Counted from the stretch's first letter, positions 18,635 through 51,854 are shown. The stretch is 64,000 nucleotides of DNA from an uncultured bacterium (GCA_966243015.1 CBIMES010000001.1:214837-278836); one strand, 5' to 3'. The notes: generated from the sequence alone by a model not told the origin. A program made the numbers and translations.

Positions 18635-20014
18635 CTAGAACCCGCCGGCACCAAGGTTGAAGTCTCCGAAGTCGGCCTTCTCGGCCGAGAGGAAGGTTGA
18701 CTTGTCTGCGTCGAAGATGAGCTGGATTTCTCCGGTCGGTCCGTTTCGGTGCTTCTCGATGAGAATGGTGGTCTCGCGCGACCTGGCCTGCTCGCCGGAC
18801 TCGTCCTTCTCTCGGTGGATGAACATAACCACGTCGGCGTCCTGCTCGATGGATCCCGAGTCTCGGAGGTCGGAGAGTCGCGGCTTGCCTCCTCGGGTCT
18901 CCACGGCTCGCGAGAGCTGCGAGAGGGCGATGACGGGCACGTCGAGGTCTCGGGCGAGGTTCTTGAGGGAGCGGGAGATCTCGGTGACCTGCTGGACGAC
19001 GTTGTCTGTCTTCACGGACGACACGGGGGTCATGAGCTGGAGATAGTCCACGATGACGAGGCCGAGCGATTTCTCCGCCTTGAGGCGTCGCGCGATGGCG
19101 CGCATCTTGAGGATGTTGTTGCCCGGCTGGTCGTCGATATAGATAGGCGCCTTCGAGAGCTTGTCCATGGCGTCCCTGATGCGGGTGAAGTCATGCTCGA
19201 TGGAGAGACCCTTTCCGGTGCGGAGCTTCCAGGCGTCGACGCGGGCCTCCGCGGCGAGCATTCGGTCGACGAGCTGCTGCGAGGACATTTCGAGCGAGAA
19301 GATGCCGACGGGGATGTTGTGGTCGACCGCGGCCTTGCGGGCGAGGTCGAGGGCAAACGAGGTCTTTCCGACCGACGGTCGTGCGGCAAGGATGACGAGG
19401 TCTGACTTCTGGAATCCCGAGAGCTTGGCGTCGAGGGCGGGGAAGCCGGTCGGCACTCCGCGGATCTCGTCGCGGGTGTTGTGGAGACGGTCGAGTCGCT
19501 CCCATGCCTCGCCAAGGGTGTCCTTGATCTCAACAAACTTGTGGGTTCCGACGGAGTTTGTGACGTTGAAGAGCGTCTTCTCGGAGATGTCGATGATCTC
19601 CTCGAGCTCGCCCTCCTCCTGGAAGCTGATCTGGCTGATAGTCTCGCCGGCCTCGATGAGGCGTCGCATCATGCTCTTCTTTTGGACGATAGACGCATAG
19701 TGCCTGACGTTCGAGGCTGACGGCACGAGCTGGATGAGCTCGGATATGTACGAGGCGCCGCCGATGCGCTCGAGCTGGCCCTGGTCCTTGAGGCGGGCGG
19801 AGAGGGAAAGAAGGTCGATCGGCTCGGCCTTCTGCATCAGGGTGACGCAGGCGACCCAGATGATGCGATGCTTCTCGGAGTAGAAGTCCTCCTCCTTTAC
19901 GATGTCGGTGATCTCATGGATTGCCTCGGGACGAAGGCAGATTGATCCCAGGAGGGCCTGCTCGGCCTCGATGGACTGTGGTGGGACGCGAATGTGATCG
20001 CCGGTTCGTTTCAT
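18635..20014 (-). CDS. dnaB: replicative DNA helicase DnaB
   Basis: Has the N-terminal DnaB domain (PPQSIEAEQALLGS), Walker A (ARPSVGKTSFAL) and the RecA-like C-terminus. The internal Met (MKRTGDHIRVPP) is preferred over the upstream ORF start at 20143. Confidence 0.9.
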   Translation of the reverse strand: MKRTGDHIRVPPQSIEAEQALLGSICLRPEAIHEITDIVKEEDFYSEKHRIIWVACVTLMQKAEPIDLLSLSARLKDQGQLERIGGASYISELIQLVPSASNVRHYASIVQKKSMMRRLIEAGETISQISFQEEGELEEIIDISEKTLFNVTNSVGTHKFVEIKDTLGEAWERLDRLHNTRDEIRGVPTGFPALDAKLSGFQKSDLVILAARPSVGKTSFALDLARKAAVDHNIPVGIFSLEMSSQQLVDRMLAAEARVDAWKLRTGKGLSIEHDFTRIRDAMDKLSKAPIYIDDQPGNNILKMRAIARRLKAEKSLGLVIVDYLQLMTPVSSVKTDNVVQQVTEISRSLKNLARDLDVPVIALSQLSRAVETRGGKPRLSDLRDSGSIEQDADVVMFIHREKDESGEQARSRETTILIEKHRNGPTGEIQLIFDADKSTFLSAEKADFGDFNLGAGGF

Positions 20015-20134
20015 GGTGTGCCCATTGTATGTCATCAAGCGGACGTCAAGGAAGGGTAAAGGGAGGATAAAACTGGGGAGGGCATGTGGATAATTAATTT
20101 GATGCGGAAAAGCCGTGTTAATATCTACTATGAT

Positions 20135-23100
20135 ATGAAGCAAATAAAACGCGCGCTGGCGGGTCTTCTTGTTCTCGCAATGACCATCCCGCAGATTACT
20201 TTCTCACAGTCATCGGGAGAGACCCTTTACCTAAATGAGTTCGACGGCGCGGCGCCCGCCATATCGTATGCCTATGGTGAGGACTCGCCGTGGTACGACA
20301 CTACCTTCGGCTCCATCAGCGCCCAGGGCGGAATCCTGTCACTCTCGGGCATCACCGGCACGGATACGAGCGTCTTTTTCACCATTCCCGGGAGTGGCGA
20401 TGTCTTTCCGGGTGAAGTCAGCCCACTCGGGCTCATTGTTAGCGCACGGGTCAGGATCGTTTCCGATCTGCCTGACGTTGGCCTTACCCTTTTCACCGAC
20501 AATTGGCAGGGGGATAGCGCGTTTACCTCAGTCACGAATGAATGGGTGACCCTTGAGTTTAATGAGACGATTGATTTTACCGATTTTGGCTTTGAGCTGA
20601 GTTCTTACGACGGATCCTTCTCGCCGTCAGACACGATCGAGATCGACTGGGTCAAGGTTTCCAGCCCGGCCCTCGTACCAGGCGTCTATTTCAACGCGGC
20701 GTCTGACAATGACTGGTCAAACGTATCGAACTGGTGGGCAGACGCAGAGTTTACCGTCCCCGCAAACGTCCTTCCGGGTTCTGAGAGTGACGTCGTCATC
20801 TCTGGTCTCGTCTCGAGCGACAGCTCGGGCGCGGCAACCGTCAACTCGGCCGTATTCACGGACGGCTCGGAGCTGGTTGACATAACCCTTACCGCCGCCA
20901 CGACGACTTTCGAGGGGAGTGCCATCAACCGCGGTACCGTGGAAGGCAACGCCATATTTACTTCTGCCGAAGCGGGTACGCTCACTCTTGGGGACGGCAT
21001 GTACTGGGGGACTGTCAACGGATCCGTCTTTGGGTCGGACGACGCTCCTATAACCAGCTTTATCTTTAATGCGTCGAGCGTAAACGTCGGTACCGTTCCC
21101 GGCAATGCGACCTTCAACGCGGGCGCCCAGAATGACGGAACGGTGCAGGGCGACGCCCAGGTAAACTACCCCTTCGTCCTACCTCTTGGAGGAACTGTCG
21201 AGGGAAATGTCACGTACTCAGGCTACACAACCTATTATTACAACAACGCCGCCTCTGACGGAGACTGGGCAAATCTCGCGAATTGGTGGCTTGATTCGGG
21301 GCACACAACAAATCCGAGCGATTTGCCGGGAAATGAGAGCGACGTCTATATTCAGGCGAGCGTGTCTTCAAGCGGCGTTGGTCCCGTGGAAGTCGCCACC
21401 GCCACCTTCTCCTCGGGAGTAACCTGGGGCAGTGGCCTCTCGCTGACGGTTTCCGATGGGGCTGTGTTTAACGCCGCGCTTAATAGTGGATCGGTTACGG
21501 GATCGACCACGTTCAGCGGCAGCACGGCGAGGAACAATCTCGCGGGTTCCGTTACTGGAAACGTCACTTTCGACGATGGGTCTCGAAACTATGGATCGAT
21601 CACGGGCCCCGTTGTCTTTAACGGCGGTTCACGTCACGAGTTCGGCGCTCTTATCACGGGCAACGCCGTGTTCAACGACAGTTTGACTCAGTCGGGCTCA
21701 ACGATCGCGGGAGAGGCTGTCTTCAATAACAGCAATAACAGCGCAACCGTCGGTTCATCCACTTTCAACGGATCGAGCGCGAACCTTGGAGGAACGGTGT
21801 CGGGCGCCGTGTTCAATGATTCGAGCTACAACCAGCGCACCATCTCGGGCAACGCGGTGTTCAACGATTCGAGTTATAACAGCGGCGCGAGCATATATGT
21901 CGTCGTGACGGGAAACGCCACGTTCAACGGCAACTCGTATAACTCGGGAACGGTGCAGGGTAACGCTGAGTTCAATGATAGCTCTTCAAACGTTCTGCCC
22001 GCGAATCCTTCTCTGGGTCTCGTCGCTGGCGACGCGGTATTTAGGGACTCAAGCAGCAACACGGGTACGATACAGGGAAACGCTGACGTGTACTTCCCGG
22101 TCACCATGCCTCTCGGGGGAAGCGTCGGTGGCGCTTTGACCTATTACGACTACCCAGAAGGCGTGTATTTCAATAACGCGGCTGCTGACGGGGACTGGGC
22201 GAACATAGCCAACTGGTGGGCTGACGCCGGCTTCACCCAGCAGGCGGGATCCGTGCCAGGTGCGAACGCGGACGTCTTCGTGTCTGCTCCTGTTACGCAA
22301 AACACCGGCGACCCTGTCTCGGTCAACTCAATTCAGTTTTCCTCGGGGGCGTATAACGAGATCGAGGTTACGGTTGCCGACGGCGTGGTCTTTACCGGCG
22401 GTTCCTACAATAACGGCACGGTGAACGGGGCGGCCATTTTCGAGGATGGAAGCTACAATAGCAACACTGAGGGCGCCACGGTCAACGGTAGCGCGATTTT
22501 CCAGGGATCAGCCTATAACCAGGGCGTCATTACGGGTGATGCTATTTATGCATCTTCCACGGGTGGCACGTTGACCGTGCTGTCAGGCGGCGCCTGGAGC
22601 GGTTCTGTCGGCGGCACCGTGAGGGGCGGCGACGGCAACCCGATAACTGACTTCGTGTTCGAGGACGGGTCGTACAACAGCAGCGGCGTGACGGTTCCTG
22701 GCAACGCCACCTTCAGTGGATCGGCCTATAACTCTGGAACGGTGTCGGGCAATGCTACTTTCAACGGCTCGGCCTATAACGCCGGCGCCGTTCTTGGTGA
22801 CGCCACCTACTCATCCGCGTCAGGCGGCACGCTGACAATCTCTTCTGGGCTCTCCTGGACGGGCTCGGTTGGAGGGACGATCAGGGGCGGCGATAGCGAC
22901 CCTATAACCGACTTCGTCTTCGAGGACGGCTCGTATAACAGCTATGGTGTCACGGTTCCCGGTAACGCCACGTTCAACGGCTCGGCATACAACTCGGGAA
23001 CAACGACGGGTGACGCTGTCTTTAACGACAGTTCGTACAACTCTGGAACGGTGCAGGGTAACGCCATCTTCAATGGCTCTTCGTACAACTCAAATTTCTT

Positions 23101-27588: not shown

Positions 27589-29001
<1,413 letters not shown>

Positions 29002-29036
29002 GGGTGTGGATTGGTGACTATAGTATAATGGCACCC

Positions 29037-30305
29037 ATGAATTCATCAAAGCGACCAATTATCGCGGCACTGATGGTTGTTGTCATCGCCGCATCGTACT
29101 TTGTCGGGTATCGCTCGGGAGTCGACTCGATCCCGGCCGAGTCCCTTGTGGCGTCTGTCGTTAACAAGGACGGCGAGATTGAGAACGTCGACTTCTCGAC
29201 CTTCTGGAAGGCGTGGAGGATTCTTGACGACAAGTTCTCGGGAACCTCGACCCCTGACCAGGACAGGGTCTGGGGAGCCATCAGCGGTATGACCGCGGCC
29301 CTCGGCGACCCGTACACGGTTTTCTTCCCGCCCGAGGAGGCCGAGCTCTTCAAGAGCGAGATCTCTGGCAACTTCGGCGGCGTCGGCATGGAGGTTGGCG
29401 TGAAGGACGGCAAGCTCGTGGTCGTGGCACCCCTCAAGGGAACTCCTGCCGATCGCGCGGGTGTAAAGGCAGGGGATTTCATTCTCAAGATTAACGATGA
29501 GGACTCAATCACCATGTCGACCGACAAGGCGGTGAAGCTCATCCGCGGCAAGAAGGGGACTACAGTCACCATCACCTTCGCGCGGGAGGGCGTCGAGAAT
29601 CCGTTTACCCTCAACATCGTCCGCGATATCATCGACATCCCGACCATCAAGACTGAAACCAAGAACGAGGACGGCACCGTGGCAAGCGGCACGGGTCTCC
29701 GCAAGGACGGCGTCTTCGTCATCTCGCTCTACAGCTTCAGCGCCAACTCCGCTAATCTCTTCCGCGGCGCCCTCAAGGACTTCGTGGCCTCTGGCTCGAA
29801 CAAGCTCGTGCTCGACCTTCGCGGCAATCCGGGAGGCTATCTCGACGCCGCCGTAGACATGGCTTCCTGGTTCCTGCCCGAGGGCAAGGTCATCGTCCGC
29901 GAGGAGAGCAGGTCTCACGACGGCGAGGACAAGACCTACCGCAGCAAGGGCTATAACATCTTTGCGGGCAAGGATCTCGACATGGTCATCCTCGTCGACG
30001 GGGGATCGGCCTCTGCCTCCGAGATCCTCGCCGGCGCTCTCTCCGAGCACGGCGTGGCGACTATCGTCGGTACCAAGACTTTCGGCAAGGGATCGGTCCA
30101 GGAGCTTATCCCGATTACCTCGGACACCTCCCTCAAGGTCACCGTGGCGCGATGGCTCACCCCGAACGGAATCTCCATCTCTCACGAGGGCATCAAGCCG
30201 GCCGTCGAGGTTCCTTTCACCGCGGCCGACACTGCGGCAAAGAAGGATCCTCAGATGGACAAGGCGATCGAGCTTCTCACTGGCAAAGCCACGGCGAAGA
30301 AATAA
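29037..30305 (+). CDS. ctpA: carboxyl-terminal processing protease (S41 family, PDZ domain) CtpA
   Basis: PDZ region (…GGVGMEVGVKDGKLVVVAPLKGTPADRAGVKAGDFILKIND…) and S41 catalytic region (…VLVDGGSASASEILAGAL…TFGKGSVQ…). TATAAT lies 7 nt upstream of the ATG at 29037. An alternative ATG is at 29028. Confidence 0.85.
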   Translation: MNSSKRPIIAALMVVVIAASYFVGYRSGVDSIPAESLVASVVNKDGEIENVDFSTFWKAWRILDDKFSGTSTPDQDRVWGAISGMTAALGDPYTVFFPPEEAELFKSEISGNFGGVGMEVGVKDGKLVVVAPLKGTPADRAGVKAGDFILKINDEDSITMSTDKAVKLIRGKKGTTVTITFAREGVENPFTLNIVRDIIDIPTIKTETKNEDGTVASGTGLRKDGVFVISLYSFSANSANLFRGALKDFVASGSNKLVLDLRGNPGGYLDAAVDMASWFLPEGKVIVREESRSHDGEDKTYRSKGYNIFAGKDLDMVILVDGGSASASEILAGALSEHGVATIVGTKTFGKGSVQELIPITSDTSLKVTVARWLTPNGISISHEGIKPAVEVPFTAADTAAKKDPQMDKAIELLTGKATAKK

Positions 30306-37267: not shown

Positions 37268-38563
37268 CTAGAGGCCTGGCAGGTACGAGAGCGGGTTGAG
37301 ATAGGCCTTCACGTCGGCGATTGGTATGACGACGTCCTTGCATCCCCTGCTGCTGCCGTATTTCTCGACTTTAACTCCCTGGCTCGCCAGGACGGTAAGG
37401 TGAAGGTGCGGTCCGGTCGAGTAGCCTGTGTTGCCGCTGTAGCCGATGCGCTCCCCTGTCTCGACCGTGTCCCCCGCCGACACGCTGATGACGGAGAGGT
37501 GCCCGTAAAGGCTCGAGAGGCCGTTTGGGTGTTTGATGAGGACCCACTTGCCGTACGAGTAGCAGCTCTTGGACAGATCGGTGTTCCCCGTCGCCTGGAC
37601 GGTTCCCGAGAGCACGGACATGACCGGTGTTCCTACGGCAGCGCGGAAGTCGACGCCGTTGTGCGTGCCCGACACGTAGAGGCGCTTTGAGTCGACGGTG
37701 GCACCGAAGTTCTGGGTGATGTAGACGTTCGCGAGCGGCCAGTCGAAGACTCCTGCGCGGGCACTTGGCACCGATGATGGGTCGATGACCAGCTTGAGTT
37801 GGGACTCGTACTCGAAGAGCTCCTTCTCGAAGGCTTCCTTCTCCTTGAGCTTCTGGCTGAGCTGTGCCTGGTACGCGGCGGCGCTGTTCTGGGTCGAGGT
37901 GAGAAGCTTGCTCTGCTCGGTCTTGCTGTACTCGACGGCCTGCTTCTGGCCCGAGAGGTTCTTCTGGAGGGTCACGAGGTTCGCCCTCTCCTTCTCGGCG
38001 CTCGACTTTTGGATGGTGAGGCTCTGGCGCAGGTCGCGGAGGTCGGCGAGGCTTCGGGTGACGCGGGCGTGGACGGAGCGAATGCCGTTCACGTAGTCCC
38101 AGGCCTCGGAGAGGGTTCGCTGATTGAGGAGTTCCTGCACGGCGCTCTGGTCCTCGGCCATTTGCATGTTGCGGATTCCCTGGGCCACGGCCTTGGCCGA
38201 GTTCTCTATCCTGCCCTCGGTTTCATCAATGTCGCCGGCGAGCTCGGTCAAAGTGAGTGAGGTTTTGGTGATCTTCGCCGTGGTGAGGGAGAGGTCCTTT
38301 TCGAGCTTGCTGCGGGTCAGCTCGAGGGATGCCAGGGCGTTCTTGAGGGTCTGGGCCTGTTTCGAGGTCGCGTCGAGGTTGGTGCTGAGGGCCGCGATTT
38401 CCTTTTCGAGGGCCTCTATGCGAGAGTTCGTGTCGGAAATCTGGTCGCGGAGGCTGTCCGCCGACTGCGCGTGCGTGGCTCTGGGCGCAAGTACAAACAT
38501 GCCGACCAGGACGAGGCCGGAGACGAGGGCGGCCAGGCTTGTGGTCTTATGAGTTGAGGGCAT
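37268..38563 (-). CDS. M23 family metallopeptidase (LytM/EnvC-like murein endopeptidase) with an N-terminal coiled-coil region
   Basis: Signal peptide at the internal Met (MPSTHKTTSLAALVSGLVLVGMFVLA). Coiled-coil heptads follow. The C-terminal M23 signature is …HNGVDFRAAVGTPV…GHLS…GNTGYSTGPHLHL…. Overlaps gltX by 17 nt. Confidence 0.8.
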   Translation of the reverse strand: MPSTHKTTSLAALVSGLVLVGMFVLAPRATHAQSADSLRDQISDTNSRIEALEKEIAALSTNLDATSKQAQTLKNALASLELTRSKLEKDLSLTTAKITKTSLTLTELAGDIDETEGRIENSAKAVAQGIRNMQMAEDQSAVQELLNQRTLSEAWDYVNGIRSVHARVTRSLADLRDLRQSLTIQKSSAEKERANLVTLQKNLSGQKQAVEYSKTEQSKLLTSTQNSAAAYQAQLSQKLKEKEAFEKELFEYESQLKLVIDPSSVPSARAGVFDWPLANVYITQNFGATVDSKRLYVSGTHNGVDFRAAVGTPVMSVLSGTVQATGNTDLSKSCYSYGKWVLIKHPNGLSSLYGHLSVISVSAGDTVETGERIGYSGNTGYSTGPHLHLTVLASQGVKVEKYGSSRGCKDVVIPIADVKAYLNPLSYLPGL

Positions 38564-40130
38564 GATCAGCGCATTTCTTGAGCGCCGCGTCGATTCGCCT
38601 GAGTACGGTCTCTTTGCCCAGAATTGCGGAGAGGGTGAACGGATTCGGCGACTTGTCCTTGCCCGACAGTGAGTAGCGAAGGGGCCACAGGACTGCTCCC
38701 CTGCCGTTCGCGTCCGCATAGGGCCAGACGGCGGCCTTGATGCCCTCCTCGGTCCAGTCCCCTGCCCTGACGCCCTCGATGACGCCGCGGACGTGCGTGA
38801 GGTGCTTCACGGTGTTCGAGAGGTCCGGCTCGTCCTTCCATTTGAGCGACAGCGCGTCGTAGTTTGGCTCGCTGAAATAGTAGTCGAGGTCCCGCTCGAG
38901 AATCATCTCGTCGATGTCGGAATACACCTCGATGCGATCGAGGATGACGGGCGCGATTGCCTTTACGGCTTCGTCGGTCACCTTCCAGCCGAGGTCCTTT
39001 GCCCGCTCGTTTGATTCGATGCGGTCCTTGATGGTCGCCTCGAGCTCGGCTCGCGGCAGGAGCTTGATGTGCTCCTTGTTCATCCAGCGGAGCTTCTCCT
39101 CGTTGAAGACGCCTCCCGCCTTGTGGATCTTCGAGATCTCGAACTCCTTCACGAGGCCTTCCTTGGTGAAGACCTCCTGCTCGGTGCCGGGATTCCAGCC
39201 GATGAGGGCGAGGAAGTTAACCATCGCTGACGAGAGGTATCCCTCCTTGCGGTACTCGAGGATATCCTTTGCGCCGTCTCGCTTGCCAAGCTTCTTGGTC
39301 TTGTCGCTGCGGAGAATCGGCGGAAGGGTTACGAGAACAGGAGGCTTGATGCCGAGAGCCTCGTAGAGGGCGAGGAACTTCGGGGTCGACGAGATGAACT
39401 CGTCGGCGCGCATGATGTGCGTCACGCCCATGAGGAGGTCGTCGATGATGTGCGCGAAGTTGTAGGTTGGGTAGCCGTCCTTCTTGATGAGAATGAAGTC
39501 GTCGAGAGCCTCCTCGCCCGCCTCGAGTCGCCCGCGTACCTCGTCCTTCCAGACGGATCGTCGCGGCGTACCTGAGTTAAAGCGGAGCGCCTGCGTACCG
39601 TCCCACTTCCCAAAGGTCTTTGGGCGATGGCGTCGGAAGAGGAAGGGCTTCTTGGCCGCCTCTGCCTGCGCGCGGAAGGCCGCGATCTCTTCGGTGGTGT
39701 ATGGGTCAGGATATGCGAGACCCTTGTCGACGAGCTCCTGCGCGTACTTGCGATAGGTGTCGAGTCGCTCGGACTGAATGCACGAGCCGAAAGGATTCTG
39801 CCTGTCCGGGCCGTAGTCCCAATTAATATCGAGCCATTTGAGTGTCTCCTGAATGTGCTCGATCGAGCCCTCGACCTCTCGCTCGGTATCGGTGTCCTCG
39901 ATGCGGAGGATGAAGGTGCCGCCGTGCTTGCGGGCCCAGAGATGCGCGAAGAGCGCGGTGCGTGCGCTGCCGATATGCATAAAGCCCGTCGGCGACGGCG
40001 CGAAGCGGGTCACCACGCCTGCGCGGTCGGCAGGAATACCCGAAAGGCTTTCGCTCGATGGTACTGACGGTTTTTTGCCGGTTTTGGTCGAAGGTTTCCT
40101 TGAAAAGAAGGCCTTGATGCGGGAAATCAT
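38547..40130 (-). CDS. gltX: glutamate--tRNA ligase with an ~40-aa N-terminal extension
   Basis: …VVTRFAPSPTGFMHIGSARTALF… (HIGH region) and …KKLGKRDGA… (KMSKS-like) with the GluRS catalytic-domain pattern. Confidence 0.9.
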   Translation of the reverse strand: MISRIKAFFSRKPSTKTGKKPSVPSSESLSGIPADRAGVVTRFAPSPTGFMHIGSARTALFAHLWARKHGGTFILRIEDTDTEREVEGSIEHIQETLKWLDINWDYGPDRQNPFGSCIQSERLDTYRKYAQELVDKGLAYPDPYTTEEIAAFRAQAEAAKKPFLFRRHRPKTFGKWDGTQALRFNSGTPRRSVWKDEVRGRLEAGEEALDDFILIKKDGYPTYNFAHIIDDLLMGVTHIMRADEFISSTPKFLALYEALGIKPPVLVTLPPILRSDKTKKLGKRDGAKDILEYRKEGYLSSAMVNFLALIGWNPGTEQEVFTKEGLVKEFEISKIHKAGGVFNEEKLRWMNKEHIKLLPRAELEATIKDRIESNERAKDLGWKVTDEAVKAIAPVILDRIEVYSDIDEMILERDLDYYFSEPNYDALSLKWKDEPDLSNTVKHLTHVRGVIEGVRAGDWTEEGIKAAVWPYADANGRGAVLWPLRYSLSGKDKSPNPFTLSAILGKETVLRRIDAALKKCADHALNS

Positions 40131-47336: not shown

Positions 47337-47407
47337 GGTCGCGTTTGCCATCGGAAAGACCGGCGCCTTACCCGCGTTGGCCGGGGGTTCAATTCCCCTC
47401 GCGATCA
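47337..47407 (+). other. tRNA-like element: canonical T-arm (GGGGG-TTCAATT-CCCCT), 7-bp acceptor stem (GGTCGCG/CGCGATC), U8, A14 and GG in a D-loop-like segment, but no canonical D or anticodon stem
   Basis: Read by eye. The GGTTCAATTCC T-loop consensus is unique in the window. The central 37 nt cannot be folded into standard D and anticodon arms (position 37 would be C), so this may be a degenerate tRNA, a pseudogene or a tRNA-like structure. Confidence 0.25.
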
Positions 47408-47655: not shown

Positions 47656-48462
47656 CTACTGGCCGGGAACGGCTGCGTACACGCGAGCATTCGAGAGGTT
47701 GCCGTAGAGGGAATAGGTCCCACCGTACCCCATGCCGCCGAGCCCCATCTCGCCGGGCATTGTGGCGAGGGGCGCCGCGATGCTTCCGCTGCCGACCTGG
47801 GTTCCGTTTGCGTAAAGGGTTACCGATCCCCCGTTGCGAACTGCGGCGATATGAGTCCATTTGTTCAAAGGAGCCACGCCCGCCTGCGAAATCACCGAGG
47901 GCCAGGCGCTGCCCGTGAATACGCCAAACGACACCCCTCCGTTCGAGGTGAGTCCGAGGTTGTAGTTCATGTCAGAGTATCTTCCCCCACGAACCACGGC
48001 TGTACCCGCACCGCCGTATGCGGTAGGACGCACCCACGCGGACACCGTCACGTCACCTGTTATGCCGAGTTGTGGATTGGCGGTGCCAACGGGAGCGATT
48101 GCAAGACTCGTGTCGCCGCCAGAAAGAAGAAGGGAGCATCTGTTGTCGTAGGGGCCCTGGTTAGAGGACCATGATGCGGCGGCCTGAAGAGTTGCTGTGA
48201 CGCTCCTTCCCGATTTATCTGCCGCGGCCACGCCAGAGCATTCGTCAAAATCCCACCACCCCACAGCCCTGTCCCCGAGGGTTCTGTCGAGCATGGATGC
48301 GAACTGCTTGCCCGCGGCGAGACGGGCCCTGTCACGGGCCGCGTTCACGCTCGCCAAGACCACGCTCGAGAGGAGGCCGATGATCGATATGACCACGAGG
48401 AGCTCGATGAGAGTGAAGCCGTGTGAATCTCTTATGTTATCCAGTTTGATTAGAGTGGACAT
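47656..48462 (-). CDS. type IV pilin-like protein with a LamG/ConA-like domain
   Basis: N-terminus …DSHGFTLIELLVVISIIGLLSSVVLASVN. The C-terminal region (…VTVSAWVRPTAYGG…KWTHIAAVRNGGSVTLYANGTQVGSG…) is LamG-like. Confidence 0.8.
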   Translation of the reverse strand: MSTLIKLDNIRDSHGFTLIELLVVISIIGLLSSVVLASVNAARDRARLAAGKQFASMLDRTLGDRAVGWWDFDECSGVAAADKSGRSVTATLQAAASWSSNQGPYDNRCSLLLSGGDTSLAIAPVGTANPQLGITGDVTVSAWVRPTAYGGAGTAVVRGGRYSDMNYNLGLTSNGGVSFGVFTGSAWPSVISQAGVAPLNKWTHIAAVRNGGSVTLYANGTQVGSGSIAAPLATMPGEMGLGGMGYGGTYSLYGNLSNARVYAAVPGQ

Positions 48463-48472
48463 GCTTTGGGTT

Positions 48473-49237
48473 TTATTCGAGAGTTGGGTAATACACTCTC
48501 AACGAGTCAATTTGACCGACCCAGTACTCGCTTGGCAACGTCTGCCACGAGCGGGCAAAAGCCGTTTGGACGCCACCCATGTCGATAATGCTGGCGCTCG
48601 GCAGCGAGACCTCCTTGTCGAGCTTACCGTCGATGTAGAACTTGTAGCCGACGCCTCCCTCGAGCAGAAACGCGATGTGAGTCCACTTGTCGAGGGGAAT
48701 GGTCGCGTTCGACTGCGGCCAGTGGTTGCCGCCTGCGTTTATCATGAGCTGAAGCCTGCGCGATGGGTTGACCCCGAAGTAGAGAAAGCCCGGAAAGCCG
48801 TTCGCGATCATGCTATAGCCGCCGCTCACATACTGGGTCGGCTTGACCCATGTCATGAGCAGGATTTTACCGTTTGCCCCGCCGACCAGATCAATGCTCG
48901 ACCTCAGGTCTGGAACTGATACATAGCTATTCCCGTCGAAAGAGAGGGCTCCGCCGCTCGGGCCTGCCGTCCACTGGGGCGTTCCCGAGAAGGATCCGTG
49001 TCTTCCAGCGCCGGAAATATCCTGGGGAGCGCTACCGGATCCGTCGTTGAGCTCCCATATTCCGAGGGCGTTGTTGGCGTAGGCGCTGTGCATGCTTGCC
49101 GCAAAACGAATTCCCGAGGATATGCGCGCCTTCTCCCGAGCAGCGTTCACGCTCGACAGCACGACGCTCGAGAGGAGGCCGATGATCGATATGACCACGA
49201 GGAGCTCGATGAGGGTGAATCCGCGCGACGCTTTCAT
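48473..49237 (-). CDS. type IV pilin-like protein with a LamG/ConA-like domain (tandem with the gene at 47656..48462)
   Basis: N-terminus MKASRGFTLIELLVVISIIGLLSSVVLSSVN. The C-terminal region (…KILLMTWVKPTQYVSGG…KWTHIAFLLEGGVGYKFYIDGKLD…) is LamG-like. An extended -10 (TGGTATAAT) sits 8 nt upstream of the ATG. Confidence 0.8.
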   Translation of the reverse strand: MKASRGFTLIELLVVISIIGLLSSVVLSSVNAAREKARISSGIRFAASMHSAYANNALGIWELNDGSGSAPQDISGAGRHGSFSGTPQWTAGPSGGALSFDGNSYVSVPDLRSSIDLVGGANGKILLMTWVKPTQYVSGGYSMIANGFPGFLYFGVNPSRRLQLMINAGGNHWPQSNATIPLDKWTHIAFLLEGGVGYKFYIDGKLDKEVSLPSASIIDMGGVQTAFARSWQTLPSEYWVGQIDSLRVYYPTLE

Positions 49238-49491: not shown

Positions 49492-50787
49492 TTACGGATT
49501 AAGCCTCTTCACGTCCCTCGGGAGGTAGGTTGCCTCGCGGACGTTCGGGAGGTCGAGCATCTTCATGATGAGACGTCCCGGTCCGATGCCCGCTCCGCCG
49601 TGCGGAGGGCAGCCGTACCTGAAGAAGTTGATGTAGTCCTTGAGCGACTCGAGCGACATGCCCTTGTCGAGGGCCTGCTTCTCGAGGATCTCGACGCGAT
49701 GCTCTCGCTGGGCGAGGGTCGTGACCTCGATGCCTCGGTAGATGAGGTCTGCTCGCTTCGAGCGGTCGTTGTCGTTCTCGTGGCGCATGTGGTAGAAGGC
49801 GCTCTTCGACTTGTGGTAGTCGGTGATGAATACGAAATCGTGATTGTGCTTCTCCTTCACGTACTCCGAGATGGCTCGCTCCTCCTCGGGCGAGAGGTCA
49901 TGATCCTCTCCCGATGCAATTCCCCTCTCGGCGAGGATCTTCTTTGCCTCGACAATCGGGATGCGTGGGAACGGCTGTGCCGGAACCTCGATGTTGAGGG
50001 TCGGGAACGCCTCCTTTACGGCCGCGAAGCCTGCGACGATCATGCCCTCCTCGGCATCCATGATGTCGTGGTGAGACTCGATGTAGCTGATTTCGAAGTC
50101 CCAGCCGGTGAACTCGGTGAGGTGTCGGGTGGTGTATGACTCCTCGGCTCGGAAGACGGGGCCGACCATGAAGGCCTTCTCGAAGCCCGACGCCATGGCC
50201 ATCTGCTTGTAGAACTGTGGCGACTGCGCGAGGTACGCCTTGCGGTCGAAGTAGTCTACGGCGAACACCTCGGCGCCCGTCTCTGACGGTGTCGACATGA
50301 ACGACGGCGAGTAGATCTGCATGTAGCCGTTCTTGTACCAGTAGTCGCGGAAGCCCTTCTCGAGCGCGGTCCAGACCTTGAAGATCTGCGCCTTCTCGGG
50401 CTTGCGGAGGTCGATCCAGCGGAAGTCGAAGCGGGTCGGCGCCTCGGTCTCCTCGCCGCCCTTGAGGGTGACGACAGGGATGGCGAGCTCGGGAGCCGCC
50501 TTCGAGAGAACCTCGATGCCCGTGATGTCCATCTCGGCTCCGCCCGGCGCCTGCGCAGCCGCCTTGACGGTTCCGGTTACCTCGACGACTGACTCGGTCG
50601 AGAGACCCTTCACGGTCTCGAAGGTCGGGCTGTCCTTCATGACGACGATTTGCACGAGGCCCTCGATGTCGCGGAGGACGAGGAAGGCGATTTTTGACTG
50701 AACGCGGAGCGCGTGCACGAAGCCGCGAACCATGACGGTCTCGCCGACGTGATCCTTGACCTTGCTGGTGTGTACGAATGCTTTCAT
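49492..50787 (-). CDS. aspS: aspartate--tRNA ligase, archaeal/eukaryotic type (class IIb; possibly non-discriminating Asp/Asn-RS)
   Basis: N-terminal OB fold, class II motifs (…FRAEESYTTRHLTEF…, …GGAGIGPGRLIM…). The internal Met (MKAF…) is taken as the start because the upstream 36 codons of the ORF-track ORF are the T-box terminator region. Confidence 0.85.
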   Translation of the reverse strand: MKAFVHTSKVKDHVGETVMVRGFVHALRVQSKIAFLVLRDIEGLVQIVVMKDSPTFETVKGLSTESVVEVTGTVKAAAQAPGGAEMDITGIEVLSKAAPELAIPVVTLKGGEETEAPTRFDFRWIDLRKPEKAQIFKVWTALEKGFRDYWYKNGYMQIYSPSFMSTPSETGAEVFAVDYFDRKAYLAQSPQFYKQMAMASGFEKAFMVGPVFRAEESYTTRHLTEFTGWDFEISYIESHHDIMDAEEGMIVAGFAAVKEAFPTLNIEVPAQPFPRIPIVEAKKILAERGIASGEDHDLSPEEERAISEYVKEKHNHDFVFITDYHKSKSAFYHMRHENDNDRSKRADLIYRGIEVTTLAQREHRVEILEKQALDKGMSLESLKDYINFFRYGCPPHGGAGIGPGRLIMKMLDLPNVREATYLPRDVKRLNP

Positions 50788-50789
50788 TG

Positions 50790-51180
50790 TGTTTGTAAAA
50801 ACGTTAATAAGGTTAATCGATGCGGGGTTGCCTGTATAAAACAAAAGCGCCCCTTCGAATACATCGCGTGGATACATTCGCAGGGGCGATTTCATCGCGG
50901 TGCCACCCTGTGTTCAGGCTGGCCTCAGGTTGCCCTGGGGCCAGCCTCTTTTGGTTTAGTCGTAATCGGACGACATCCGGGGGATTCTACTTGCCTCGGG
51001 CTGATTTGAGGCCCACGGAGGCTTTCCTTCCCCTACCTCGCCGGTGTCAGCCGGGTCAGTGGTATGCGAGTACTTTAGCTGATTTTCAGGGTTTGGGCAA
51101 ACTTTCTATCCTGACCAGCATAAGGGTTCTGATAGCTTGGCCTTCGGGCTCCAAGGCCCCGTTTTCGCGGGGTTTCGCTT
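50790..51180 (-). promoter_or_regulatory. T-box riboswitch leader regulating aspS
   Basis: The minus strand carries the T-box consensus AGGGUGGCACCGCG (~50896-50909). It is immediately followed by an 18-bp terminator helix (CGCCCCUGCGAAUGUAUC/GAUGUAUUCGAAGGGGCG) plus CUUUUGUUUU, about 50 nt before the aspS ATG. A ~270-nt structured region with a UUCG-capped helix lies upstream. Confidence 0.7.
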
Positions 51181-51185
51181 TTTCC

Positions 51186-51854
51186 CTAGCGTATGTATGC
51201 CATTGATGCGGCGACACCATCGATGTTTCGGTAGACCTTATCGGAAGGCTGATTCTTCATTTCCCAGGTCTCAGATACTATAAATCCCGGAAACTTTTTT
51301 GATTTAGTTTGTGCAAGAGCGGCAATCGTCCTGGCGCACGACTCCTCGGCGTAGGCGGGCTTGGTCACGCTCGCCATAATCCTGCGAATGAGGCCATATC
51401 CCGACGTGTCTACTGAGCATATTTCAATTATGGCGTACGGGACCCCATGTGCGCTTATTTTTTCCTCGCAGTTTATAACTGTAATGTCGTAATCTCCTTT
51501 ATTGAGAAATACTTCGGTTGAACACATTCCTTCGATTCTTTGTCCCGTGTACGATATTGGTCCAGAGGGACCCTCGTAGCTTTTTCCCTCGGTCTCTTTG
51601 TTTGTCGCCTCTAGGCGTGGTGAGTTAAGACCGGTTAACGCCCAATGCTCGTAGGGCATCTTTTCGTTGTCTGAAGGACGAACACTTTCAATGACAGCCT
51701 CTGGGCTGGGCACAGCAAAGGCTAGGCCGAGGATTTCTGAGCGGAAAAGGCCATCCGTGTCGAGGTTGTTTTTGACGGACCAATCTTTTGATAGGAAAAG
51801 ATATCCTGAAAAGAAGAGTGCGCCGAGAGTTGTAATTAAGATTATTTTTTTCAT
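51186..51854 (-). CDS. hypothetical membrane-anchored protein (222 aa), AT-richer than surroundings
   Basis: Internal Met MKKIILITTLGALFFSGYLF (N-terminal TM helix). No domain recognised. Confidence 0.5.
   Translation of the reverse strand: MKKIILITTLGALFFSGYLFLSKDWSVKNNLDTDGLFRSEILGLAFAVPSPEAVIESVRPSDNEKMPYEHWALTGLNSPRLEATNKETEGKSYEGPSGPISYTGQRIEGMCSTEVFLNKGDYDITVINCEEKISAHGVPYAIIEICSVDTSGYGLIRRIMASVTKPAYAEESCARTIAALAQTKSKKFPGFIVSETWEMKNQPSDKVYRNIDGVAASMAYIR

Follow-up and report, generated by a model that had tools for sequence, protein, structure and literature searches.

The gene aspS in the DNA analysed here (a stretch of 64,000 nucleotides from an uncultured bacterium, hereafter the window) is preceded on the minus strand by a sequence that an earlier reading, made from the letters alone (the sequence-only reading), took for a T-box riboswitch. 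Is this a genuine T-box, which tRNA would it read, and by what route would it act upon the gene? The features needed to answer these questions are listed here in the direction of transcription.

51095..51100, minus strand: promoter-like −35 box TTGCCC, inferred, at a position conserved among relatives and under the threshold of a consensus scan
51072..51077, minus strand: promoter-like −10 box TAAAGT, separated by 9 nt from the element downstream and by a 17-nt spacer from the −35 box
50838..51062, minus strand: complete T-box leader, beginning with the K-turn and ending with the U tract of the terminator (RF00230 and R1 matches)
51036..51062, minus strand: K-turn and ultrashort Stem I (RF00230/R1 alignment and hand parse)
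51046..51048, minus strand: specifier codon GAC (Asp), followed by a conserved purine, A51045; register set by the family
50980..51033, minus strand: Stem II (RF00230 alignment, folding and hand parse)
50959..50979, minus strand: Stem IIA and IIB pseudoknot strand (hand parse)
50917..50946, minus strand: Stem III, a 13-position helix (GGCUGGCCCCAGG, loop GCAA, CCUGAGGCCAGCC)
50896..50909, minus strand: T-box sequence AGGGUGGCACCGCG, also written AGGGTGGCACCGCG, an exact match
50882..50909, minus strand: antiterminator, with helix A1 (AGGG/CCCU), the 7-nt bulge UGGCACC, helix A2 (GCGAU/AUCGC) and loop GAA
50838..50888, minus strand: predicted intrinsic terminator, a 17-bp hairpin (50888–50848) followed by CUUUUGUUUU (50847–50838)
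50788..50895, minus strand: 36 codons wrongly added to the N-terminus of the called ORF, without counterpart in relatives
49492..50787, minus strand: aspS, 431 aa, archaeal-type aspartate--tRNA(Asn) ligase (NF003483, TIGR00458)

The aspS gene, its T-box and the extent of the leader

The gene downstream of the element does encode an archaeal-type AspRS, as had been proposed: the 431-aa protein scores 460 bits against the Asp-tRNA(Asn) ligase model NF003483 (cut-off 353) and 379.5 bits against TIGR00458 (cut-off 368.4), and AsnRS models fall well short of their cut-offs on the same protein. Its closest protein relatives, 70–81% identical, belong to MAGs of Paceibacteria, Zambryskibacteria and other Patescibacteria, and the source organism is a Paceibacteria-like CPR (Patescibacteria) bacterium; the G+C content of the window is 56–58%. 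An exact-protein look-up of the 431-aa product in public records gave no match, and public gene calls carry a 467-aa overcall. This called ORF (49492–50895) begins at an AUG at 50895, within the antiterminator loop. The alignments of relatives begin only at MKAF... (query residues 1–18), and the ATG at 50787 aligns with all of them. The suspicion that the N-terminus of the called ORF is an artefact was thus well founded, since its first 36 residues lack a counterpart in any relative, and no start upstream of the hairpin is better supported.

Relatives of the leader were gathered with a metagenome scan whose pattern consisted of the T-box (UGGC fixed) and the antiterminator 3′ strand, which yielded 120 loci. 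From these and from genome loci we parsed 42 non-redundant leaders having a K-turn-flanked Stem I of 3–5 bp and an apical loop.

The conserved 14-nt T-box AGGGUGGNACCGCG is matched exactly at 50909–50896 on the minus strand, as the sequence-only reading stated, and this is the sole match in the 64-kb window at one mismatch or fewer (chance expectation 0.10). Within it, the bulge UGGC (50905–50902) is the predicted pairing partner of the tRNA 3′ end GCCA. The antiterminator, whose 3′ strand is AUCGCCCCU, folds alone at −10.7 kcal/mol and agrees with the consensus of RF00230 and of R1, a covariance model that we built from 14 relatives with the window left out. Directly past the T-box comes the stable hairpin that had been described: a 5′ arm CGCCCCU-G-CGAAUGUAUC (50888–50871), the loop CACGC and a 3′ arm GAUGUAUUCG-A-AGGGGCG (50865–50848) form a helix of 17 bp with one G/A mismatch, and the U tract follows. 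The core helix has a predicted energy of −23.5 kcal/mol, and the 59 nt from 50896 to 50838, with extra A-U pairs to the U tract, reach −26.9 kcal/mol (z=−4.8 versus shuffles). The U tract ends at 50838 and the aspS ATG lies at 50787, 50 nt on, which agrees with the earlier estimate of that distance. Antiterminator and terminator cannot coexist because the antiterminator 3′ strand and the terminator 5′ arm share the same seven nucleotides, CGCCCCU, and the suggested check of mutual exclusivity is borne out. A hairpin reusing the antiterminator 3′ strand and joined to a U-rich tract occurs in 39 of the 42 leaders; two others end at a contig edge.

Many members (L006, L020, L054, L057, L100 and others) carry CUCC a few bases past the U tract, complementary to GGAG of the terminator 3′ arm, and at 50831–50815 the window has a CCCC counterpart to the GGGG of its own 3′ arm. 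Such segments may mask the freed Shine-Dalgarno-like arm in read-through transcripts.

We propose a promoter for the leader from positional conservation only, a consensus promoter scan having found no site there. Nearly all 42 relatives have a box of the TTGCAT/TTGACA type where the window has its −35 box, the promoter-like pair ends 8–10 nt ahead of the element in nearly all members, and the −10 box of L057 agrees with that of the window in both sequence (TAAAGT) and placement. Transcription would start at about 51065–51069, at the 5′ edge of the K-turn. The promoter-like boxes at 51100–51072 exclude positions 51069–51185 from the leader, and this interval is the 3′ region of the upstream gene plus the promoter. 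It follows that the leader is shorter than the ~270 nt, reaching 51180, that had been ascribed to it: the element begins at about 51062 and the boxes lie between. The UUCG-capped helix that was said to precede the T-box does not hold up either, for UUCG occurs on the plus strand only, the leader strand reads CCCGAAGG, and the position is outside the leader.

Just past the stop of the upstream ORF (51143–51185, minus strand) there are two overlapping hairpins, AAACCCCG-CGAAAA-CGGGG and then GGCCUU...AAGGCC, which are probably the 3′ end or terminator of the upstream gene. We set aside as chance-level two matches located upstream of the proposed promoter, one to c-di-GMP-I-GGC (51143–51187, E=0.13) and one to Hammerhead_II (E=1.5, reaching 51073).

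Decoding modules and covariation

The 5′ half of the leader contains the modules of a T-box decoding domain in reduced form. A predicted K-turn, CC-ACU-GA ... C-GA-GG, aligns to the K-turn columns in both RF00230 and R1; its C-stem pairs CC (51062–51061) with GG (51037–51036), the GA elements lie at 51057–51056 and 51039–51038, and the C-stem covaries in an alignment of 30 members (CG 25, GC 4, UA 1). Stem I consists of four base pairs, CCGG (51054–51051) with CCGG (51044–51041), closed by the apical hexaloop CUGACA (51050–51045). The sequence-only reading had not noticed how short this stem is. Among the 30 relatives this stem covaries, with examples such as CCGG/CCGG, CCAG/CUGG, GCAG/CUGU and UCGG/CCGA. 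Across the family the two opening bases of the loop vary; the next three are GAC in 34 leaders and AAC in 8 (and in L092), and the base after them is A without exception. That no other codon appears is partly by design, for a codon for Asp or Asn was a condition of the hand parsing of the 42 leaders, and UGGC was fixed in the metagenome pattern. We considered reading the loop as CUG, UGA or ACA and rejected all three, since conservation and agreement with the regulated gene are confined to the GAC/AAC register.

Stem II follows directly. Its proximal helix pairs GGGGA (51033–51029) with UCCCC (50984–50980), its S-turn strands are AGGAAA (51028–51023) and AAGUAGAA (50992–50985), with a GAA/AGUA S-turn in the RF00230 alignment, and its distal helices are GCCUC/GAGGC and GGGC/GCCC; compensatory changes are found at all five proximal pairs and at three distal pairs. 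Stem IIA (CGGA 50979–50976, loop UGUCG, UCCG 50970–50967) is followed three bases downstream by the IIB strand ACGAC (50963–50959), which pairs with GUCG of the loop. A short IIA loop occurs in 24 relatives, and 20 of these have a IIA-loop/IIB pairing of 4–6 bp, mostly starting 2–4 nt past IIA, and the paired sequences differ between members in a covarying manner (AUUUGC/GCAAAU, GCGUC/GACGC, CAUGU/ACAUG). Stem III is absent or shortened in most relatives.

A scan with RF00230, proposed as a check of the original claim, gave an end-to-end match (model positions 1–219, 51068–50879) of 37.1 bits, with an E-value of 1.1e-6 when the region is searched and of 1.2e-4 when the entire window is. This is well short of the gathering score of 93, so that the match is visible only at an E-value threshold, and an Rfam scan of the whole window at the gathering threshold gave no hit of any kind. 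The low score has a single source, namely 4 nt where the model has 74 consensus positions of Stem I; every other module aligns. Of 20 family members, not one attains the gathering score. With R1, the window scores 84.2 bits (E=2.8e-18, 51062–50881), and this is the sole match in the 64 kb. Members with the full architecture score 64–137 bits with R1, and canonical long-Stem I T-boxes of the same loci mostly 22–40.

In the 30-member alignment 97.3% of cells are in standard pairs, compared with 82.9% in shuffles and 42–50% when partners are slid by 1–3 columns; fitting the alignment to the model biases it towards the structure, yet both the slid controls and the counts of double changes remain well separated. 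Compensatory changes occur at 17 of the 25 pairs, and the covariation score of 0.446, versus 0.170 in shuffles, was equalled by none of 500 shuffles. The invariance of UGGC, of the antiterminator and of the loop provides no independent evidence because the search pattern and the loop filter fixed those parts. Taken together, these data indicate that the element is almost certainly a functional T-box riboswitch.

tRNA specificity of the leader and of the enzyme

It had been suggested that the specifier codon would reveal whether the enzyme is charged with Asp, Asn or both substrates. Read from Stem I, the codon is GAC (Asp), and the predicted ligand in the window is tRNA-Asp(GUC); orthologous leaders carry AAC (Asn) instead, which favours a non-discriminating enzyme family. 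AAC and GAC leaders are interleaved within the window's own orthologue clade in a neighbour-joining protein tree, where L006 (AAC) is sister to L054 (GAC) and L020 (AAC) stands beside L012 and L014 (GAC), and AAC specifiers occur at orthologues 72–75% identical to the window protein. An AspRS gene turned on by uncharged tRNA-Asn makes sense only with tRNA-Asn charging, so the AAC leaders constitute indirect evidence for non-discrimination and support an AspRS family that would serve both Asp and Asn. As to the genes that would make or bypass Asn-tRNA, no gatA, gatB or asnS is present among the ten ORFs of 411–600 aa in the 64-kb window, a small fraction of the genome.

The proteins encoded downstream of the leaders are of a consistent type. 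Where an ORF can be called it is AspRS-like class IIb except in L057 and L129 (three leaders are without a callable ORF), and seven proteins that we tested were all AspRS and none AsnRS. An archaeal-type Asp-tRNA(Asn) ligase lies downstream of AAC leaders (L172, L149) and of GAC leaders (L098, L139, L154) alike, and a bacterial-type AspRS is found behind L083 (AAC) and L073 (GAC). Against the 590-aa models, the L073 and L083 ORFs (465–468 aa) align in two stretches and fall ~120 aa short, and it is the insertion (GAD) domain that they apparently lack.

A precedent from another lineage is of interest here. Saad et al. are said to have described, in 2012/2013, an Asn-specific T-box of the long-Stem I Firmicute type upstream of a non-discriminating aspS2/gatCAB operon in Clostridium acetobutylicum. 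The resemblance lies in an AspRS serving tRNA-Asn under T-box control and in the possibility of an AAC specifier, which is realized in the window's orthologues only, the specifier of the window itself being GAC.

The bulge UGGC calls for a G discriminator base, and tRNA-Asp generally has a G73 discriminator. Neither the window nor 60 loci that we scanned contain a tRNA-Asp gene; the only relevant tRNA gene found was tRNA-Asn, in L033. This tRNA-Asn(GUU), from a related MAG, ends in CUCGGCA-G-CCA and fits the UGGC bulge. The bulge would thus suit both tRNAs, and one may ask whether a GAC leader senses both, tRNA-Asp(GUC) by perfect pairing and tRNA-Asn(GUU) by a G-U wobble at the first codon position. 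For a non-discriminating AspRS, and the enzyme does match the Asp-tRNA(Asn) ligase equivalogs, a single leader would then report on both substrates, and the repeated swapping of GAC and AAC among orthologous leaders would mean that either tRNA is acceptable as a signal. We nevertheless regard dual sensing as unlikely: if GAC served both tRNAs the AAC variants would have little reason to arise, and the inspection of codon–anticodon geometry reported for the S-turn of Stem II-containing T-boxes (PMC7778990, PMC7583486) should disfavour a first-position wobble.

Output of the switch and its place among T-boxes

Our preferred reading, which we consider highly probable, is that a tRNA-Asp-sensing T-box controls aspS by transcription attenuation. 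From the observed sequence elements, exclusive helices, covariation, conservation and gene identity we infer that the tRNA binds, which way the regulation runs, where the transcript begins and that the hairpin acts by termination, in the following order of events. Transcription would begin a few bases upstream of 51062, and the nascent leader would fold into the K-turn and the 4-bp Stem I, whose hexaloop would offer GAC and its purine. The adjacent Stem II S-turn and the IIA/B pseudoknot would complete an anticodon-binding groove as in Class III, with no distal platform contacting the tRNA elbow, and the anticodon GUC of tRNA-Asp would pair with GAC. An uncharged tRNA would pair through its 3′ GCCA with the UGGC bulge and stabilize the antiterminator, which would occupy CGCCCCU and let polymerase continue into aspS. 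With a charged tRNA, or with none, CGCCCCU would instead pair with AGGGGCG to form the 17-bp terminator, and transcription would halt at CUUUUGUUUU, 50 nt ahead of the start codon.

Certain considerations count against attenuation. We know of no demonstration of intrinsic termination in these (CPR) bacteria. The T-box is lacking in about 37 of the 45 orthologous CPR aspS loci with upstream sequence (it is present in 8), which implies that such control is dispensable. In reviews, moreover, fast capture of tRNA during transcription is said to require of transcriptional T-boxes a distal Stem I that binds the elbow (PMC7583486), a part that the window element lacks.

This last point raises the question of where the element belongs in the current classification. 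Four classes of T-box have been distinguished (PMC10482949): Class I with a long Stem I and Stem II; Class II, represented by glyQS, without Stem II; Class III with a short Stem I that lacks the platform, the specifier in an apical loop of 5–6 nt and a required Stem II; and Class IV with an intermediate Stem I. Class III T-boxes mostly control the start of translation, by Shine-Dalgarno sequestration (PMC10482949), a "mostly" that leaves room for known exceptions. As relayed from Sherwood 2015 by PMC10482949, PMC7583486 and PMC11297988, they are ileS leaders of Actinobacteria (Mycobacterium tuberculosis, M. smegmatis, Nocardia farcinica), and the TBDB database sought the short-stem class in Actinobacteria only (PMC7778990).

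The window element shares with the Class III ileS leaders the short Stem I without the elbow-binding double T-loop platform, the specifier in a 5–6 nt apical loop followed by a purine, the K-turn, Stem II with its S-turn, the IIA/B pseudoknot and a standard T-box bulge and discriminator domain; structurally it reads CCGG-CUGACA-CCGG, with the Stem II S-turn and IIA/B directly after the K-turn. It differs in specifier (Asp here and Asn in relatives, rather than Ile), in gene (aspS rather than ileS), in host (Patescibacteria rather than Actinobacteria) and in predicted output, which here is a hairpin with a U tract 50 nt ahead of the ATG in place of a Shine-Dalgarno sequestrator. In its 3′ half it resembles the transcriptional Class I T-boxes (Bacillus subtilis tyrS type; RF00230), which include Firmicute aspS leaders (PMC2494555): antiterminator and terminator share one strand, and the 14-nt T-box, Stem II S-turn, pseudoknot, Stem III and K-turn are all present, as is an aminoacyl-tRNA synthetase gene under what is here predicted to be its own tRNA. 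The distal Stem I of Classes I and II is missing, however, with 4 nt in place of the 74 consensus positions that comprise the internal specifier loop, the AG bulge and the distal loop, and the specifier is apical. In those classes the AG bulge and the distal loop make up an interdigitated double T-loop platform, which stacks on the elbow of the tRNA. With Class II glyQS it has in common a reduced architecture and the transcriptional mode, but the reduction is reversed: glyQS keeps a long Stem I and drops Stem II.

As the class with the Stem I/II architecture seen here is held mostly to regulate the initiation of translation (PMC10482949), the switch might act post-transcriptionally, on translation or mRNA stability, with the hairpin serving as a sequestrator or as a processing or stability element, and the lack of any visible Shine-Dalgarno sequence ahead of the aspS ATG means that the translation start is atypical anyway. 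This we judge very improbable, since the hairpin ends 50 nt short of the ATG and covers no ribosome-binding site, and since the U-rich tract directly after it, here and in 39 of the 42 relatives, is the signature of an intrinsic terminator. That the element is a decaying or chance T-box-like sequence, or codes for a genuine N-terminal extension of AspRS, is scarcely credible and close to refuted: the Rfam score is under the gathering threshold, the element is missing from most orthologous loci and an ORF does run through it, but the modules are intact without exception and show covariation across 30 relatives, the class model R1 gives E=2.8e-18, and the extension is without counterpart in any relative.

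T-box control of aspS would be patchy among the genomes that we surveyed: the same leader type occurs upstream of aspS in 8 of 55 genome loci. In the remaining loci aspS mostly lies directly behind a trpS-like gene or has an unrelated leader. Specifically, in L002, L004, L009–L011, L019, L021, L022, L024, L026 and others, aspS begins less than 30 nt past the trpS-like gene (...GVKLY stop) and there is no T-box. Some 120 nt upstream of aspS, a further group (L032–L042 and L050, Falkowbacteria-like) has in common a promoter-like TTCTTGCTAAAA...TAAAAT box, together with a ~70-nt leader that contains a covarying hairpin ~15 nt ahead of the ATG; the leader is no T-box, and may represent another kind of motif in front of aspS.

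The pairing of a very short decoding stem with a transcription terminator is one that standard annotation misses and that is not described in the searchable literature. An incomplete literature search found no paper on a T-box in Patescibacteria, Parcubacteria or candidate phyla, or with a non-discriminating AspRS. What emerges is a conserved, covarying and previously unannotated family of short-stem T-boxes, of predicted terminator type, that belongs to CPR aspS genes. A bolder proposal, to which we give slightly less than an even chance, is that the patescibacterial aspS leaders constitute an undescribed T-box lineage in which Class III decoding is wired to an intrinsic terminator, so that the decision would be made co-transcriptionally without the supposedly essential platform, that the GAC/AAC flips within one orthologue group would be a natural reporter of a dual-tRNA AspRS, and that the sister leaders lacking Stem II (L001, L012, L093 and others) would be the smallest T-boxes known.

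The family would extend T-box regulation to the candidate phyla radiation, where we found no published report, and would provide a compact natural counter-example that challenges the rule that terminating T-boxes need an elbow-binding distal Stem I. For annotation, it means that a whole leader class goes unseen by Rfam-based methods, with the result that synthetase genes are over-called at their 5′ end. The toggling between GAC and AAC would offer sequence-level evidence on Asn-tRNA synthesis in reduced genomes, and short modular tRNA sensors are attractive engineering parts.

Two variant leader types were encountered among the aspS loci. Leaders without Stem II (L001 2807–2923, L012 535–645, L062, L073/L087/L168, L093, L101/L150, L111, L126, L139 and L141) keep the ultrashort Stem I, the T-box and the terminator, with 29–55 nt from K-turn to T-box and no IIA/B pseudoknot, and score 34–52 bits with R1. 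These may represent a still smaller architecture, in contrast with the requirement for Stem II that the literature attaches to the short-stem class. L067, L069, L156, L159, L162, L171, L173 and L175 form a third short-stem Asp/Asn T-box type (GAUGCGA-CUGACAA or UUAACAA-CCGCGGAG) ahead of a bacterial-type aspS (MLSLKSKYRTHTCGEL), often just past a tRNA gene. This type has no hairpin with a U tract; a GGUGCY...RGCACC hairpin adjoins the AAGGUG ribosome-binding site, which suggests that it acts as a translational relay.

Elsewhere in the window, two tandem genes directly downstream of aspS (47656–48462 and 48473–49237, both minus strand) have a prepilin-type N-terminus (FTLIELLVVISIIGLLSS), and public annotation assigns N_methyl and Laminin_G_3 domains to their products. 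The minus strand also carries cysS (27589–29058), gltX (38547–40130) and dnaB (18635–20143); scans of the window with RF00230 and R1 detected no T-box at cysS or gltX. Finally, at 47337–47407 on the plus strand ARAGORN calls a tRNA-Val(UAC) with the anticodon loop CUUACCC and a pyrimidine at position 37; the Rfam tRNA model scores under its gathering threshold at this site, and the best match within the clan is tmRNA, at 20.7 bits.
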